A stretch of 63,198 nt of DNA, counting the filler, from an uncultured Methanosarcinales archaeon (GTDB lineage Archaea; Nanobdellota; Nanobdellia; Woesearchaeales; JACPBV01), in assembly GCA_964492935.1 (NCBI GenBank). It is 3 parts of 3 records of this genome, joined end to end, with 100 filler letters (N's around TTAATTAATTAA, not from the genome) between each part and the next. Parts side by side here need not be neighbours in the genome. Positions count along the whole stretch, not along the records: positions 25,437 to 49,695 come from CAZBLF010000017.1; 2 more parts are not named here. One strand, given 5' to 3'. Position numbers: made by a program. Below, piece after piece: positions 27,001 through 33,000 of the stretch (the first letter of the stretch is position 1; each line of letters opens with the position of its first letter).

Positions 27001-30000
27001 ACTTGCCTTCCCTCTTCTGTTTAGCATAGAGTATAATCTTCTTCACATCAGACGACGGATTCTTGTCCCAAATCAATCTACCTGTCTTTGTACCCTCAAC
27101 CTCTTCCTGCTCGAATCCAGTATAGGCGAGTGGCTTAAAACTATCCCAAAACTGCATCCCAATCTTGATCGAAACCGGCGTTCCATCCCACCGATGACTA
27201 AAAGAATCATCAGTTATCTCAAAAACCAGCACATAGTCTTGCTTATTATCCGTCGGTGTTACTGTAAACGCACTAAATTCCGAGACCATGCGAGCAAGCG
27301 TAGGTTCTCCCTCAACACCATCTTTTTCTCCCAGGATCGCACCAGTACACCATTCGATATCGCTACCTTCGTGCACAACATTATAATCTTTTGCCTGCAA
27401 CAAACACTGCTCAAACTCCCCTTTGTACAGCTCTACAGCACCCTTCACCCGATCCATCCCCTTCAAAAAGTCATAATCCGAACTAATTCTAAATGCCGGC
27501 TTAATCGCATACACAACAGGCTCTATCTCTCGACACATATCCTCCCAATAACATCCCAATGTGCAAGGATCAAAGTCACACTGTATCTCATTGAGGTAAT
27601 CATCACATTCATTAGATTTTTTTGTACATATCTGCTCCGCCGAATCCTTACTACGACGAGCGGCATTCTGTCGCTTCAATCCAATGCCGGCCTCATTAAT
27701 CAAAGAGGCAGCTCTAGCTGAGGGAAAAACCGCATCTTTCGTCCCAATGCCAACCACTTCAAGCCCACTCCCTTTTTCCTCGTACACCAAATCAAAGTTA
27801 TCGAGGGGAATATTTTTTCCGGGAAAACGAAGTAGGTAACTATCTAATCGAGTATTAAATAATCCTTCAAAAGACTCCTGTAAGGCACCCTCCGTAGGAG
27901 TGCATCGGTGACGTTTCCTATCTTCCATCGATTTACTTCGTTCACTCTCGTCAATAGACTCCCAAACACCGTTTTCACATATTCCTCCGGCCTTAGTAAA
28001 AAACTCAGTTATCGTATCCTGGAGCACATACTCTGCACTCTGATCGACATACAGTAATGCCTTATGGCCTGAAGCGATTGCTTTGAGCTGCTCACTCTGC
28101 AACTCTCCTGTCTGCCCAGTATAAGGAACGATCTTTTGAGACATCTGTAGCGAGAACATCATCAAGAGTATAGAAGTAAATACAATCAAACTCAAACCCA
28201 TGGCAATCAATCCTTTTTTGTCCTTCATCGATATAGCTCCAGCCGATACTCCAAAGGCACTCGATCTCGTTGAGGCAACACAAAATCAAAAGAGTAGTCT
28301 TTCTTAGAAGCATAACATCCCTTAGTGCATTTTTTAGTAAGGAGACTATCTCCCAAATAAAGTTTGAATTTCTTATAAGAGGTTGTTTCAACTAATACCT
28401 TAAGCAATGCCTCATTTATTTCTGTAGAACGATCAACTCCCGTCGTCCCATCAATAGGCTCATAACTCAATATTTCGCGCAAGGGTTTAGTACCTACTTC
28501 GTACTCCAACAATCCTAGCAATAAAACAGTATCAGTATGTTCATCAAATGAAACTTTAATTGCAACCTCCTCCTTTCCGGCGATCTGAGGCTTTATACAT
28601 TGGGTCATCAGGACAAAAATGAAGAGCACAAATATCCAAAACATCACAAAGACTGCACGATCCGCACCCGTCCCTCTTTTCGATTTCATCGGTAAAACAT
28701 AACCCCCTCAGTCAAATGAAGAGTCTTACCTGCAACAACAACCGGATACCTCAACTGAGTCCCACCAAAAACATTCCCGTTCTGATACACCGCAGAAGCA
28801 GCCCGATAAAGCTCAAGATTAAATCCCACAGGGTTCTGGCCCTGAAGTGTTAAAGCACCTGCAAAATCAGGATCTCCCAAGAACAATTTCTCAACCTGAT
28901 CCTGTGTAATCTTTTCCGAGTCAACAATCCAAGGATAGGTCCTTCCTGTAAGATTATCCTCCAGAAAAATAGAATCTCCACTAAATGCCAATCTGCTAGA
29001 GTACAGATAATGCTCCATATTGTAGGTATCGGCAGATCCCTTAAAGACAGAGAAAAACAAAACCGCGAATAATCCTAAGATAACAACAATGCCGACCATG
29101 TACCCCATGATATAGAAAACTAAATCAGACAACCCTCTCTTATTATTAAACAGCCTAGACAATTGCATCCTGGATAACCCCTGGCAATTGCGATTTAGTT
29201 TGTGTACTCGTAAGTTCAGCATAACTAGCCTCATCGCGCAGGCTGCCAATTTCAAGAATCAAGCCGGCAACGTCAGGTCTGAGAAGCGGAACGAATCCCT
29301 CTCCCTCGCCACCTATAAGTTGAGCCTCATCAAGGGGAATAAGAGCAACTCCCTCAAGGCTAAGACTAGGAACATCCAAGAGATTATTCAGAATCTCACA
29401 TCCAAGACCTTTAGAAACTTCCAGAATCTCCTTAGGAGAATTCTTAAGATAATATGCTTTGATCGTTTTCCCAGCGAACGCCGAGCCAACGTGAATACTT
29501 ACAATTAAATCAACCTCCTTTTTTTGGCTAGCAGCCTGGATATCATTCGTAGACTTCCTCCGACCATCCTGCATTCGAGTGTAAAAAACATCCTCGATCT
29601 GAGTAGAAAGCAGCAGTTCCAAACTACTACCAAAGACATGAGTGAGTTCAGATTCTCTACGCCCATTGTAAACATGCCCATCATCTGCACCATGAGCAGC
29701 ATCAACTATAATGTGCTTAAAACCATGTTTACCTACCTCACAATCAAGGCTATGCAAGGAATAAGCGCGAGATCCATCTCCTTGATCCATAAACAATCCA
29801 TCATTAATGCGCGCAAACACCGGTTTCACCTTAGTCTTCTCAACGAGATTAGTAGAAATCTTCTCGCCAGCAAACCGTGGCGCCAAACTACCTTCATTGA
29901 CCGTTGCATGTCGATCGGCAAGAAAAGGATAGCTTGCTAGTTCAGTAATCGGCCTTGTTTCATCGTGAATTCCAACTACATTATCCTTAATGCGCAAACC

Positions 30001-33000
30001 AAACCATTTCATATTTTTATCATACGTAACAATCATATTCCCGGGAGAGGCATACAACGTATTAATCACCATCGCAACATCCCGTGCAAGAAAATTAGCC
30101 TCAAATCCTACTTCCTCAGTAATATTGACAATCTCCTTCATAATCGGTAGAAAATAAAACGCCGCAATCAACAAAAGACCAAAAATAGCTATAGGAATAA
30201 CGGCAGGTATCTCGCTTTGGCCCCTCTTTCCCATAGACCCTCCCTCGAAGAAATGAGTTTATATATCTTATGTTATTTTTTCAATGTACTTAACGTAATC
30301 AAGGTATGTTGCACCTTAGAATTATCTTTACTAGCATCAACTTTCTTTTCAATAGAAAACCCCAGATCTACAGTCGCAATCTTATCATCTCCCTCCTTGA
30401 AATCAAAATCAACAATCTCTCCCTCCTTGCTCAAAATCTGGTGACAATACGGAGCTATTTTTTCGGCTCCCGTCGACTGCAAACACATCTTCGGCTCAGA
30501 TGCACAGTCAACCCCGCGTACCTGACTAGCCTCCGTACAGCGAGAGTAAAGCCTAATAATATTATTTGTGGTGAGAGCTAAAGGAATACTCGACGCCTGA
30601 CCCTTATGAAACTGAGTAACATATTCTGCAATTGAATCAAACGTCTCATAATTCACATTTTGAATATGTGCTTTTTGAGACTGACTGCACCATTTAGCAA
30701 CTGCAGGAATAAACACTATCAGAAAGACTACCAATATCGTCATCTGCAAGACTTCAGTCCAGGGCTGGTCGACAACACTCCCTTTCTTATTTTTTCTTAG
30801 CCCCATCTTTGGCTGGCTCAGTTATTTACTATAGGAGAACTCTGATAGCAATCCTTATCTCCACAATCACTAAAGGTGCCTGTAACCTTTTCCCAAGTTC
30901 TCCCGTTAGCAGGAGTGGGAGGCGTATCAGCACATTTTCTATTAGTATCAAAAAGACTCTTACATGCAGTTCCATCAGCCTGATTTAAAGCAGAATCAGC
31001 AGTTGTTTTGTAACCTTTAGTATATGTAAGAATACTCTCCTTGAAAATAAAACCAACAATAATCAATACCAACACCCCTAACGAGGCGATGATAATCATC
31101 GTAAACGAAAGCCCCTGACCCTTTTTCCGAACCATACACAAAAACTCCATTTTCAAATATTTAAACCTTTGCAAAGGGAAAGCTATTTATACAGAAAATC
31201 CAGTATAGCAGCAATGAACAAAAAAGCGATTGTTTGGTTGGTAATAGCGCTTGTAGTGATGGTCGCAGCAAGTTTCTGGCTCTTCGGAGAGCCAGGTATC
31301 AATGAAGCCGACCCAGAAACGTGGATCATACGAACTTCTCAAACACAAGCGGGTGTCGATTTGCAGGGCGCAACGGCGGGCAAGAGCTTCCTCAACGAAC
31401 AAGGGCTGCAATACCTTTCCGCTACTACCGCAACCACATTTGCCTTAGAAGGATGGTATCAAGGTAAACATTTCAGGCAAGTGTATGCTGATCAAGACGG
31501 GAGAGTTCAAATGAGAATCACCCCGAAGATGCAACCTTACGATGGTATCCCAGAAGGATTCATTTTGCAAAAGTTAGATCCTCCTGAGGCCTACATTTTC
31601 CTTGACCTAGACTGGAAGGAGAAGTATCCACAATCCGTGATCTACTGGGGACGCTTCTTCGAAAATGAACAGGCAGTTGATTTTTCCTCAGAAGTAAAAG
31701 GGATATATATAGACCGAATAGAAGATGACATTTCAAGATTCCAGGAGAACTTCAATATCCATGACGGTGGAGTGATGGTGGGAATTCTAAACGAGGATGA
31801 AACTTCTACGCTTATCCGATTGTCCTAAGTTTTTCCAATACTAAGTGTGCCCCACCCGCTCTTCTGCCATTCCTGAATCTCTTTTGAATCACGAGACGTA
31901 TCTCCGGTACCTCCAAAGCAAGCAGACACGGAAGGGATATGTCGAGGCCAAGCACCACATTTTTGTAATGCATATGAACCCGCTACAGCACCTAGTTCGA
32001 CACCTGAGACTGCAAGGGTCACAACGGCACCTGCCGATGTACCTCCCGAAATAGGAATCAGCGCTACAGCTGCGATTATCGCTGCCACATTAGCTGCAGT
32101 CGTAGCATATTCAAGATTAAGATTTCTTCCAGTATAGCAAAAATTGTTACCCCCATTCCAGTTAGAGTAGGAATCGAGGCGCGGAGTTGCAGAAACGCAA
32201 GGAATAGTAACTCTTCTTGATCCAGAGAACCGATTCGTCTTCGTAGGGACGAAAGTCTGCACGACGTCGGTTTCCCTACATACCTTGACTGCATTGACTT
32301 GTTCTGCGGTGGGCTGAGCTACAATATAGTTCCGAGGTAAAATATCCTTAATGAGATCATCAAGATAATCACTCTTGAGAAATCGTTTCATTTGCATCTT
32401 ATAAATGAGCTTACTGGTAGATTTGAACCAAACTAAGTTTCCATAATTGTTAGCTGGAGAATTGAGGAACAAGGGAAGATTTCTTTCTCGTCGATCCTGC
32501 AATCTTGACCATTCCAACTGAATCTTTGAAAAAACAAATGTCTCATCTGGAGAACTATAGAGGTATGTTAAACTAGTAGGGTCTTCAATGGGCCCTCTAT
32601 GACTAAAAATATTATTGAGCCGTTCATGACGCTCAGTATTTCTCATAAGGTCCCAATTAATTTCTAATACATCGCTTGGCTTCTCCCTAGGGTTTTTCCA
32701 AAATCTCTTAGAAAAGGGTAACCTCCAGACAGATTTAAAAGTTTGGGGGAGATCAAACGAGTCAATGTTGGGATTTTCATAAAAGAGCCCTCGTACGAGA
32801 TGTGCTAGTTCCTCCTTATCCCAATCATCAAGAGAAAGTTCACCTGAAACGATGGAGACAGAAGTAAGGTCGGAGACGAAATTGCTAGAAAAAACCTCGA
32901 GAAATCGCCGAAACCGTACCTCGTCCAGATCAAGAAGAGGAGTTAATTCAAGAAGGAATTCAATCTTATCATTTTTTCCATAAGGAGTTCCTACATGGTT

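Follow-up and report, generated by a model that had tools for sequence, protein, structure and literature searches.

A pilin-like archaeal protein with an amidase domain, encoded in a cluster of prepilin-like genes

Why would a tiny archaeon without sign of a bacterial-type wall encode a protein that looks like a pilus subunit and is tipped with a bacterial wall-cutting enzyme? The question is posed by a gene of 359 aa at 29155..30234 (minus strand; whole ORF, stop codon included) of the window, by which we mean the whole 63,198-nucleotide stretch of DNA analyzed. The ORF, which starts with MGKRGQSEIPAVIPIAIFGLLLIAAFYF, belongs to a genome of 1.15 Mb that is 84.8% complete, and its product runs from a K-R-G plus hydrophobic N terminus through a 55-residue helix and a small beta-sheet to a complete Amidase_3 domain. 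We favor, with a probability somewhat above even (roughly 0.55), the reading of this protein as a minor pilin of modular build, belonging to a type IV filament in a marine Woesearchaeota/Nanoarchaeota (DPANN) archaeon and carrying a murein-amidase head that is probably active.

The architecture proposed in the initial annotation, a prepilin-like N terminus, a pilin-like helix and sheet, and an intact Amidase_3 domain, is borne out by Pfam, AlphaFold2, and motifs. In the AlphaFold2 model (60-row alignment; pLDDT 92.1, pTM 0.83), helix 8-62 is followed by strands within residues 67-151 and by the amidase fold at 174-358. Residues 1-5, MGKRG (30220..30234, minus strand, as for all parts of this gene), form a short basic leader that would end at a class III cleavage site, G|Q. 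Cleavage had earlier been placed after the Gln (MGKRGQ|); under the usual class III rule the cut would follow Gly, giving KRG|Q. Of 115 full-length relatives, 103 have K/R at -2 and 106 have G/A at -1; [KR][GA] stands directly before the hydrophobic helix in 130/145 relatives. As an archaeal class III signal the leader is non-canonical: polar residues come after the Gly, and a FlaFind-like pattern is fitted by only 12 of 150 relatives. Residues 8-62 (30049..30213) are predicted, from the AlphaFold2 model and conservation, to form a single continuous helix, hydrophobic in its first half and bearing in its second half the conserved block FE(K)nFLARDxA...YAsPGN. Near-invariant residues are D52 in this block and Y71 in the beta-sheet (residues 67-151; 29782..30036), which AlphaFold2, VIA-align, and Atlas structure rows assign to a pilin-like module.

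How closely does this module resemble known pilins? In a comparison with solved pilins, absent from the initial annotation, minor (pseudo)pilins lead in VIA-align; Foldseek, at E<=0.001, matched the N-domain to none of the solved pilins. The top VIA-align rows are EpsI, GspI, XcpV, PilE, PilA4, and PilV (Z 3.9-4.6), and type IV pilins or pseudopilins make up 18 of the top 32 by hand count, all with Z<=4.6, below the level that the tool calls distinctive. T2SSI, PilV, and PilX are independently among the Atlas structure rows. The best structural matches of the predicted module appear, weakly, to be minor (pseudo)pilins such as GspI/EpsI. GspI, EpsI, and XcpV (PDB 3ci0, 2ret, 5bw0) share with it an alpha1C helix plus small sheet (63-67 residues, rmsd 2.9-3.7), and they are type II secretion minor pseudopilins that work in complex with neighboring minor pilins. 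Unlike them, the 359-aa protein is archaeal, carries an extra enzyme head, and has no PF02501 match; Z is 4.2-4.6 and identity 8-10%. No Pfam or NCBIfam pilin family matched any protein of the cluster, even at E<=10. In hhalign, the first 71 columns of the N-domain family align to the adjoining 160-aa pilin family at a probability of 86.9%. We infer the pilin identity of the 359-aa protein from its motif, predicted fold, and context.

That context is a cluster of genes sharing a prepilin-like N terminus, as had been claimed: [KR][GA] plus a hydrophobic start occurs in 17 minus-strand ORFs between 26744 and 41027 and in one plus-strand ORF. A loose motif scan gave 69 matches among 8078 ORFs genome-wide; 12 of them fall in this 14.3-kb run, where the density of such matches across the genome predicts 0.86. 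The remaining 5 of the 17 were recognized by eye. The locus is syntenic in other genomes (BLAST, 20 loci). The amidase-pilin gene is overlapped at its 3' end by a 160-aa pilin-like gene (28686..29168, minus; NNKRG|LSD...), whose homologue lies directly downstream of the family gene in 49/49 loci, that is, in all 42 genomes examined. Beyond it, a 154-aa gene (28225..28689, minus), with MKSKRG|TGAD and then a hydrophobic stretch by sequence and motif scan, overlaps both adjoining genes by 4 bases and has no homologue in other loci by phmmer/HMM. The last gene of the run (494 aa; 26744..28228, minus; MKDKKG|LIAMGLSLIVF) has BLAST relatives in 8/20 loci.

On the other side of the amidase-pilin gene lie a 177-aa gene recognized by eye (30273..30806, minus; RKNKKG, then a delayed hydrophobic stretch) and a small pilin-like gene (30818..31135, minus; sequence, motif scan, BLAST) of ~105 aa as counted from its start MVRKKG|QGLSFTMIII. 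The one gene on the opposite strand (219 aa; 31169..31828, plus; MNKKA|IVWLVIALVV) is conserved within the locus, with relatives in 5/20 loci at BLAST E of 1e-16 to 1e-38. It is followed by a giant gene of 1383-1385 aa (31825..35982, minus; NKRG|FLVWSNVVEIVIG), which has BLAST relatives in 5/20 loci; its product has several internal hydrophobic segments, a hydrophobic C-terminal region, and no Pfam family. Two helix-only, pilin-like ORFs, one of 47 aa (35979..36122, minus; MRLKKG|LAFNQLVLFIL; motif scan) and one of 44 aa counted from MDKRG|QATE... (37165..37299, minus; sequence, motif scan), flank a 349-aa gene (36119..37168, minus; ENKKG|MSEGIIVTVIMM) with relatives in 3/20 loci. Four paralogous small pilin genes of 85-124 aa (37550..38935, minus; KK[GA]|QGL[SP]LNVIII...), with BLAST relatives in 9-13 of 20 loci, are candidates for the major subunits. 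Three overlapping conserved genes (38975..41027, minus; 160/172/357 aa by ORF), with RG|QxE-type N termini by sequence and scan, have relatives in 12-13 of 20 loci at BLAST E down to 1e-63.

The C-terminal domain (residues 175-358; 29161..29712) is the sole Amidase_3 match in the 1.15-Mb genome, with 49.3 bits in Pfam against a cut-off of 27 (E 7.8e-13). It is complete, as first described, with its H-E-H-E tetrad: H181 (DAAHG), E194 (RRESE), H248 (SIHVG), and E328 (LEIGS) are all kept and align with the family motifs. Foldseek matched the head to 4rn7, CwlD, AmiB, AmiC2, and CwlV at E 1e-9 to 2e-8, best to 4rn7 (E 1e-9, TM 0.76 by target). Against the PDB, the family profile found Cwp6 (1.1e-22) and LytH (3e-16), and its matches to solved Amidase_3 chains range from E 1e-22 to 1e-14, the DPGHGG, E, SxH, and LE motifs being aligned. 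In LytH, according to PMC9245657, the metal is bound by two His and a Glu, and one more Glu is kept throughout amidase_3. Since the metal triad (H181, E194, H248) and the conserved Glu (E328) are kept, the head most likely still cleaves murein, and on its sequence it is probably active in this organism. The only cysteines are C279 within the head and C165 in the linker (residues 152-173; 29716..29781). Both occur in 106 of the 115 full-length relatives, neither in 9, and one alone in none; this all-or-none pattern suggests an extracellular disulfide.

These enzymes also raise the question of whether the protein need be a pilin. CwlD is membrane-anchored. So is LytH, by a transmembrane helix (PMC9245657); with such plain membrane-anchored Amidase_3 enzymes in existence, an N-terminal helix alone is no proof of a pilin. 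Like the 359-aa protein, CwlD and LytH (PDB 7rag, 7tj4) have a compact catalytic fold without an occluding helix, the same metal triad and conserved Glu, and an N-terminal helix before the domain, and both depend on a partner protein. They differ in that the 359-aa protein has a 140-residue pilin-like module and prepilin-type leader before the domain, comes from an organism without sign of its own murein, and scores 18.5 bits with the NCBIfam cwlD model (cut-off 221.55). Its helix, cleaved or not, could nonetheless merely tether an unpolymerized amidase to the archaeal membrane, for action at the cell surface or contact zone as in CwlD/LytH or the bindosome proteins of Sulfolobales. The presence of LytH (by sequence) and CwlD (by structure) among the top relatives of the head, the non-canonical leader, and the lack of a match to pilin families all fit such a tether, as does the wide spread of archaeal class III proteins other than classical pilins described in PMC13705601. 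We consider it unlikely, however: the 55-residue helix continues into a small module of helix and sheet that finds its best structural counterparts among minor pilins, G/A at -1 is conserved beyond the needs of a positive-inside anchor, and the gene sits in a syntenic 17-gene pilin run, strictly paired with a pilin-like gene. Secretion of the amidase through the pilus, as had also been suggested, finds no support. Helix 8-62 runs unbroken into the globular domain, which argues that the protein stays attached via its N-terminal helix.

Relatives tell which part of the protein matters to the family. The 220 matches at E<=1e-3 among 1.84 billion representatives were reproduced, and the fusion is indeed a conserved family, ~55 of the 150 matches listed aligning over >250 residues in one stretch (hand count). 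Present in 320/401 genomes and 230/281 genera sampled from the phylum (Woesearchaeota/Nanoarchaeota, judging from what its relatives are named), it is a syntenic core gene, nearly universal and for the most part single-copy. The tetrad is intact in only 52 of the 115 full-length relatives; at least one residue is gone in the other 63, in 41 of them three or four. Among genome orthologues with a C-domain, 21/34 have lost Zn/catalytic residues. Five of 40 orthologues consist of the N-domain alone (139-155 aa), and one further has an unrelated C-terminal extension. The N-domain-only genes occupy the same syntenic slot as full-length genes, and survival of the module where the amidase is lost again speaks against a simple tether. 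A Pfam-detectable amidase is found in the family gene of only 23/401 genomes (matched by hand). Thus, the conserved part is the pilin module with its partner gene rather than murein cleavage, and amidase chemistry is dispensable for the core role of the family. Because the pilin module is what relatives keep, their shared role is probably structural or adhesive.

Might the head of the 359-aa protein itself, then, be a pseudo-enzyme or adhesin, a rigid element that binds or acts as a spacer in a tip complex with a partner other than murein, such as the envelope of an archaeal host? In that case the intact tetrad would be an ancestral leftover without natural murein cleavage. Hosts of cultured DPANN are archaeal, the tetrad losses are extensive, and 54 of the 63 degenerate relatives retain fold and Cys pair. 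The genome yielded no further family of murein hydrolases, so the amidase-pilin is not surrounded by a lytic toolkit. Even so, this seems doubtful, as the 359-aa protein and the 52 intact relatives across the tree retain the tetrad with its DxxHG and LEIG motifs, and the family profile still picks up true amidases (E 1e-22). The family tree does require at least 20 changes of tetrad state, but with shuffled labels the number is 38, indicating that the intact tetrad is heritable and maintained. Woesearchaeota with murein-degrading genes (PMC9723730) and bacteria-killing archaeal murein hydrolases (PMC12352652) have also been reported.

The genome has a Peptidase_A24 (contig C1, 50.4 bits) and a T2SSE ATPase (contig C12), so the annotated prepilin peptidase and ATPase stand; the platform protein annotated with them has no Pfam T2SSF match in the genome, and the sole hint of one is a GspF-like neighbor, an Atlas look-alike. 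For murein, no transpeptidase, SLT, or further hydrolase family was found in the 84.8%-complete genome, and there is one Mur_ligase_M match (C1:87503-87991). A single Mur-ligase-like gene is also present in the two archaeal controls that matched this family, Methanocaldococcus jannaschii and Haloferax volcanii, neither of which is known to produce murein. These results agree with the initial view of an organism without its own murein. Bacterial trans-envelope machines often have their own wall hydrolase, and, given the lone ligase match, one could picture a housekeeping autolysin remodeling a murein-like polymer of the archaeon itself for filament passage. With transpeptidase and SLT not found at 84.8% genome completeness, the ligase-like gene shared with the controls, and the amidase domain dead or missing in most relatives, we regard this as very improbable.

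Returning to the modular minor pilin, we imagine that the A24 prepilin peptidase would cut the five-residue leader after Gly5 and that the protein would be anchored in the membrane by the hydrophobic first half of the helix. The helix might then be packed into the filament core with the help of the ATPase and a probable platform protein, both from genes on another contig. The small GspI-like module would act as carrier, working with the 160-aa pilin encoded directly downstream, and Amidase_3 would form an outward-facing head, stapled to the linker by the putative C165-C279 disulfide. Such a head would most likely act on bacterial murein encountered outside the cell, cleaving its MurNAc-L-Ala bond, which would serve to grip, locally thin, or harvest the bacterial wall. 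Across the phylum, the carrier would be conserved and the head repeatedly dead or lost, making hydrolysis an optional extra. An attack tool against bacteria is one possible use of the intact minority, which by its sequence includes the 359-aa protein.

Several known systems bear comparison. Bacterial modular pilins comprise >1,200 proteins in 264 architectures, according to PMC8179133; those of the Streptococcus sanguinis PilB/PilC type similarly join a small N-terminal pilin module, a short linker, and a bulky functional module, are encoded among pilin genes, and use many modules, presented by the filament. The 359-aa protein differs in being archaeal, in lacking the IPR012902/N_methyl signature or a Pfam pilin family, and in having an Amidase_3 enzyme fold as its module. 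The words "archaea" and "hydrolase" are absent from the main text of PMC8179133, as are "amidase" and "IPR002508" from three files of its supplementary text (29,359 characters; the full dataset may be elsewhere). Woldo/Danwoldo (PMC12352652) and the GH23 lytic transglycosylases of Woesearchaeota (PMC9723730) are likewise murein-cleaving domains in murein-less archaea; such domains are prominent in Nanoarchaeota and are interpreted there as anti-bacterial tools. In these proteins a catalytic domain is joined to a murein-binding domain listed in Pfam, and the signals, where known, are of the Sec or Tat type, whereas the amidase-pilin family has no Pfam binding domain, has a prepilin-like leader, and is core and syntenic rather than sporadic. 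"Pilin" is absent from both main texts. New here are the phylum-wide distribution of the family, its synteny with a partner pilin, the tetrad loss, the Cys pair, and the weak GspI/EpsI likeness. The archaeal bindosome (PMC13705601, whose main text does not contain "amidase," "peptidoglycan," or "murein") is described as similarly using a class III-type N terminus and helix to bring a non-pilin domain to the cell surface via type IV filament machinery. Its domains are those of solute-binding proteins encoded beside ABC transporters, whereas the 359-aa protein is an enzyme fold in a pilin locus.

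The amidase-pilin gene (29155-30234, minus strand) encodes 359 residues with the N terminus MGKRGQSEIPAVIPIAIFGLLLIAAFYF and lies on contig C17 (25437-49695 of the window), one of three contigs that runs of N's join in the window; the run between C16 and C17 is at 25337-25436. Its C-terminal part is an Amidase_3 domain (PF01520), matched by Pfam at residues 175-358 with 49.3 bits, against a cut-off of 27, over positions 1-172 of the 174 in the profile. In a genome-wide search, this match scored 51.4 bits and was the sole one in the 1.15-Mb, 57-contig, 84.8%-complete genome. AlphaFold2, given a 60-row alignment, modeled the protein at a pLDDT of 92.1 and a pTM of 0.83 as a single helix (8-62), strands within 67-151, a linker, and an alpha/beta domain (174-358), which we call the head. 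Foldseek matched the head to CwlD, AmiB, AmiC2, and CwlV, as well as to 4rn7, with E values of 1e-9 to 2e-8 and TM scores, by target, of 0.65-0.76 (1e-9 and 0.76 for 4rn7); 7rag_B, 8c0j, 5emi, and 1jwq were among the PDB chains matched. Compared with PDB sequences by phmmer, the single protein gave one chance-level row alone, and the NCBIfam CwlD model TIGR02883 scored it at 18.5 bits, below the cut-off of 221.55. A profile of the family reached Cwp6 (1.1e-22), 4rn7 (1.7e-17), and LytH (3e-16) among solved Amidase_3 chains, and the DPGHGG, E, SxH, and LE motifs lined up. The metal-binding H-E-H and the conserved glutamate are all present as H181, E194, H248, and E328, hereafter the tetrad. The text of PMC9245657 describes the equivalent two histidines and one glutamate of LytH as holding the metal, and another glutamate as kept throughout the amidase_3 family. 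The head looks catalytically competent in this organism, judging by these residues. The initial annotation had described a prepilin-like start, a pilin-like module, and an intact Amidase_3 domain in one protein, and that architecture is borne out.

The N-terminal domain (residues 8-151) had no Pfam or NCBIfam match, with Pfam taken up to an E value of 10. Pilin families were likewise without a match in Pfam or NCBIfam at E≤0.01, and at E≤10 for the amidase-pilin and 13 other proteins of its cluster (a Pfam run on 14 proteins, in which that at 39457-39900 was entered without its N terminus). Folded alone with 23 short relatives, the domain gave the same helix-plus-sheet (pLDDT 82.6), and Foldseek found no solved relative of this model in the PDB at E≤0.001. 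An exhaustive VIA-align search put the minor pseudopilins of type II secretion at the top (EpsI, Z 4.6; GspI, 4.5; XcpV, 4.2), followed by PilE, PilA4, PilB of S. sanguinis, and PilV; by hand count, 18 of the best 32 rows are type IV pilins or pseudopilins, with all Z scores at or below 4.6, under the level that the tool deems distinctive. A structure search of the ESM Atlas (own model) returned T2SSI, PilV, and PilX clusters together with unnamed archaeal clusters, at TM scores of 0.34-0.59 (0.34-0.52 for the T2SSI, PilV, and PilX rows). The pilin likeness of these matches to a predicted structure is a consistent lead, if no proof. The layout, with a pilin-like module at 8-151, a linker at 152-173, and Amidase_3 at 174-358 in the full-length model, is that of a modular pilin, and the N-terminal module stands alone in some natural orthologues. 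IPR012902, the operational criterion for modular pilins in the text of PMC8179133, a bacterial study, is absent from the protein.

The leader of the amidase-pilin, MGKRG before a hydrophobic stretch, is short, basic, and ends in glycine. K or R occupies position -2 to the hydrophobic helix in 103 of the 115 full-length relatives, and G or A occupies position -1 in 106; of 145 relatives having an N-terminal hydrophobic helix, 130 carry [KR][GA] directly before it. Such a pattern looks like a prepilin peptidase site and exceeds the needs of a positive-inside anchor. By the usual class III rule, the cut would fall at KRG|Q, one residue before the point given in the initial annotation. A Sec signal peptide was rejected, the hydrophobic stretch belonging to a helix that continues to residue 62. 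The leader is at the same time non-canonical, with polar residues at +1 to +3 (Q in 32, E in 16, S in 14, and D in 14 at +1) and an acidic residue within 12 positions of the glycine in 124 of the 130; a FlaFind-like pattern was fitted by only 12 of 150 relatives. These departures leave room for a tethered surface enzyme that never polymerizes. Given how much the leader resembles a peptidase site, we consider that explanation unlikely.

Only two cysteines occur in the protein: C165, within the linker, and C279, within a helix of the amidase domain. Of the 115 full-length relatives, 106 have both and 9 have neither, with no case of one alone. A structural disulfide leaves an all-or-none pattern of this kind, and the putative C165-C279 bond points to a head that is extracytoplasmic and rigidly mounted. 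All 52 relatives with an intact tetrad retain the pair, as do 54 of the 63 degenerate forms, in which the tetrad is incomplete. Three or four tetrad positions are changed in 41 of those 63, and thus the loss is not alignment noise. On a FastTree phylogeny built without the four tetrad columns, the state of the tetrad changes at least 20 times, compared with a mean of 38 (range, 29 to 46) for shuffled labels; the trait is therefore heritable, yet it has been lost many times.

When 40 orthologues, each from a different published genome, were aligned to the family HMM, the same erosion was seen; the set is biased towards high scorers. The tetrad was complete in 13; the C-terminal domain was present without a full tetrad in 21; a different, unrelated C-terminal extension was present in 1. 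The remaining 5 (139-155 aa) consisted of the N-terminal domain only and ran up to or into the partner gene, which in the window is a 160-aa pilin-like ORF directly downstream (28686-29168, minus strand), so that there is no room for an amidase domain. With the head dead in most relatives and absent in some, the common function of the family cannot be murein cleavage. It seems more likely that the shared role is a place in a filament or tip complex, and that binding or cutting a bacterial wall would be a lineage-specific addition. The initial annotation saw in this protein a tool for attacking bacterial walls; such a use is possible for this lineage, and as a conserved role it finds no support in the family-wide picture. 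One can also envision a head that only binds, and whose partner is something other than murein. The many degenerate heads that keep the cysteine pair would suit such a function, and the complete tetrads in the window and elsewhere go against it; we regard it as doubtful.

The surroundings of the gene also point to a pilus. Between 26744 and 41027, 17 minus-strand ORFs and one plus-strand ORF share a prepilin-like type of N terminus. A loose prepilin scan of all 8078 ORFs of at least 50 aa gave 69 matches genome-wide, of which 12 fall within this 14.3-kb run, versus 0.86 expected from the genome-wide density, and one further match lies elsewhere on C17; the five remaining cluster genes miss the scan solely through a charged residue or alanine at -1. 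The run includes four paralogous small pilins (85-124 aa), three overlapping conserved genes of 160, 172, and 357 aa (38975-41027, minus strand), and a giant protein of 1383-1385 aa (31825-35982, minus strand) with a prepilin-like start, several hydrophobic segments in its interior, and a C-terminal region that is hydrophobic and rich in Gly/Ala. The giant protein matches no Pfam family and may be an adhesin or a membrane-inserting part of the same apparatus. The sole gene on the opposite strand (31169-31828, plus strand; 219 aa) starts with MNKKA and then a hydrophobic stretch. A replication factor A of archaeal type (25437-26692, minus strand; Pfam/NCBIfam) adjoins the run on one side; just past the run, a Cys-rich protein of 264 aa with an N-terminal hydrophobic signal (41114-41908, plus strand) matches no Pfam family.

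Two further candidate ORFs of the run, of 47 and 44 aa (35979-36122 and 37165-37299, minus strand), comprise hardly more than a KKG/KRG leader and one hydrophobic helix and resemble pilins without a globular domain (Flp/Epd-like). The larger, presumably minor, pilin-like proteins of the cluster carry an acidic residue 3-4 positions past the glycine (RG|QIE, RG|QME, RG|QSE, RG|LSD, and KG|MSE), and the small, presumably major ones (KG|QGLPLNVIII) are without it, the reverse of the bacterial Glu5 pattern. A flip in the sign of the GC skew at 24000-26000 was rejected as a replication origin, since it coincides with the artificial C16/C17 junction. We likewise discarded the idea that the gene was recently transferred from bacteria: the locus is even in GC content, and nearly all of the best 150 of 220 database matches share the pilin N-terminal domain, the clear non-family amidase among those 150, P0053, reaching only an E value of 2.9e-8.

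Candidate components of the pilus machinery are encoded elsewhere in the genome. A Peptidase_A24 gene is present (50.4 bits; region of C1:39927-40277), as is a single T2SSE ATPase (51.1 bits) in an 805-aa ORF, where an N-terminal extension of about 460 residues precedes the ATPase core. In this region, C12:5687-10281 of the genome, the ATPase ORF overlaps the gene of a 738-aa membrane protein. No T2SSF (Pfam) match was found in the genome, this neighbor included; it resembles Woesearchaeota clusters automatically named "GspF domain-containing protein" (feature score, 0.98), and T2SSF is present on 16-22% of the members of related clusters. A phmmer comparison of this platform candidate with the PDB gave nothing meaningful. 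The main text of PMC13705601 reports such a layout for these archaea, in which ATPase and platform genes are neighbors and the pilin genes lie at another site.

The amidase-pilin is a real and conserved protein, and its architecture is more than chance. Among 1.84 billion representatives, it has 220 matches at E≤1e-3, and 115 of the best 150 of these measure 290-400 aa; the closest are named N-acetylmuramoyl-L-alanine amidase of [Candidatus Woesearchaeota archaeon] and [Nanoarchaeota archaeon], which places the organism in that group of DPANN archaea. A profile from 60 full-length members was matched in 320 of 401 genomes sampled from the phylum, spread over 230 of 281 genera. Most of these genomes had a single match, and they belong to the same order as well as to further orders of its class. 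Tallies over the 401 genomes take in five unpublished ones (G396, G243, G244, G333, and G322), and no claim is based on these alone. Many of the matches span the N-terminal domain only, about 44 of the 150 listed being in ORFs of less than 200 aa (hand count). The locus itself is found again in 12 DNA runs (marine, seawater, and hydrothermal-vent metagenomes), each carrying near-identical DNA for at least half of the sampled words; in four runs, contigs are identical to the window across the amidase-pilin gene, with no insertions or deletions. In a related strain, about 85-90% alike, roughly half of the changes in the short fragments among the matches listed are nonsynonymous and in loop regions, the fragments being too few for a selection test.

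Synteny was assessed by BLAST with the window proteins against the surroundings of orthologues, in 20 stretches of at most 20 kb. The 357-/172-/160-aa trio recurred in 12-13 of the 20 loci, the small pilins in 9-13, the 494-aa protein in 8, the giant protein in 5, and the plus-strand 219-aa gene in 5, in the same place and with E values of 1e-16 to 1e-38. In 14 of the 20, replication factor A (40-55% identity) lay no more than 10 kb from the pilin orthologue, a conserved association of a replication gene with this locus. An iterated profile showed, directly after the family gene, a homologue of the partner gene in 49 of 49 loci from 42 genomes (40 without two unpublished ones). By hhalign, the amidase-pilin and the partner family align over the first 71 columns with a probability of 86.9% and an E value of 4e-6, a kind of score that hydrophobic helices inflate. 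A predicted complex of the amidase-pilin (31-359) with the partner (41-160) scored 0.00 in both runs, which speaks neither for nor against binding. The best-supported picture is of a modular minor pilin, in which an Amidase_3 head would have been grafted, and stapled by its disulfide, onto a GspI-like carrier module; the carrier is encoded in a large pilin locus, is conserved together with it, and is paired with a second pilin.

A further rival is an autolysin acting on a wall of the organism's own. Transpeptidase, SLT, Peptidase_M23, NLPC_P60, and Glyco_hydro_25 had no match, and the one Mur_ligase_M match has counterparts in the archaeal controls M. jannaschii and H. volcanii. As far as an 84.8%-complete genome can tell, there is no sign of murein synthesis or of a further murein hydrolase in the organism, and we hold the autolysin to be much less likely.

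DPANN archaea are numerous and for the most part uncultured, and are believed to spend their lives fixed to other cells. We imagine that the syntenic locus of roughly 14 kb, which most Woesearchaeota/Nanoarchaeota possess, could build a host-contact filament whose minor-pilin complex carries a murein-recognizing head, an active amidase in lineages like this marine one and a binding-only relic in others, and give this reading about one chance in five. If it holds, a large uncultured DPANN order would physically engage bacteria, not archaea, as hosts or prey, and an intact versus a dead head would be a sequence marker for lineages still cutting the wall. The locus is a concrete candidate for a host-contact machine and gives a testable hint of contact between some lineages and bacterial walls, and the series from intact to dead to headless is a natural one for studying how a pilus module changes function.

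The census in PMC13705601 describes, in its main text, type IV filament genes in these archaea as scattered, hard to assign, and rarely ordered, without using the words "amidase" or "peptidoglycan". Here we find a locus of 17-18 pilin genes that is syntenic across the order; at its center are two genes whose pairing is strictly conserved, one of them bearing a bacterial-wall enzyme fold. The amidase-pilin joins two known kinds of protein. Modular pilins are established in bacteria in the text of PMC8179133, whose supplementary text (29,359 characters; the full architecture data set may lie outside it) contains no amidase terms. Modular murein hydrolases were reported in 175 of 3,706 archaeal genomes, prominently in Nanoarchaeota, with Sec or Tat signals where the signal is known, in the main text of PMC12352652, from which "pilin" is absent. 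For Woesearchaeota, the main text of PMC9723730 reports GH23 lytic transglycosylases and pore-forming toxins, and "amidase", "pili", and "pilin" do not appear in it. A full-text literature search, with most subscription journals outside its scope, turned up no account of an archaeal pilin with an amidase head, nor of the conserved locus. The amidase-pilin would take the modular-pilin idea into Archaea and give the murein hydrolases of archaea a route of display that surveys based on Sec and Tat signals would miss.

Pfam Amidase_3 matches occur in 39 of the 401 genomes. In 23 of the 39, this genome and three unpublished ones included, the match is the pilin-family gene (coordinates compared by hand); in the others it is in other proteins, some of them ORFs of 2477-2515 aa. 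Strong matches, of up to 147.8 bits, lie inside very long ORFs (2515, 2477, 1458, 661, and 702 aa) of other genomes of the phylum, at G062:C20:26052-26657, G326:C18:162-812, G326:C2:4399-4695, G150:C10:41594-42313, and G197:C3:56053-56628 (sampled genome, contig, and position). The group may have a second theme, in which giant surface proteins bear murein-amidase domains. The match in G197 is about 3 kb from the pilin-family gene of that genome.
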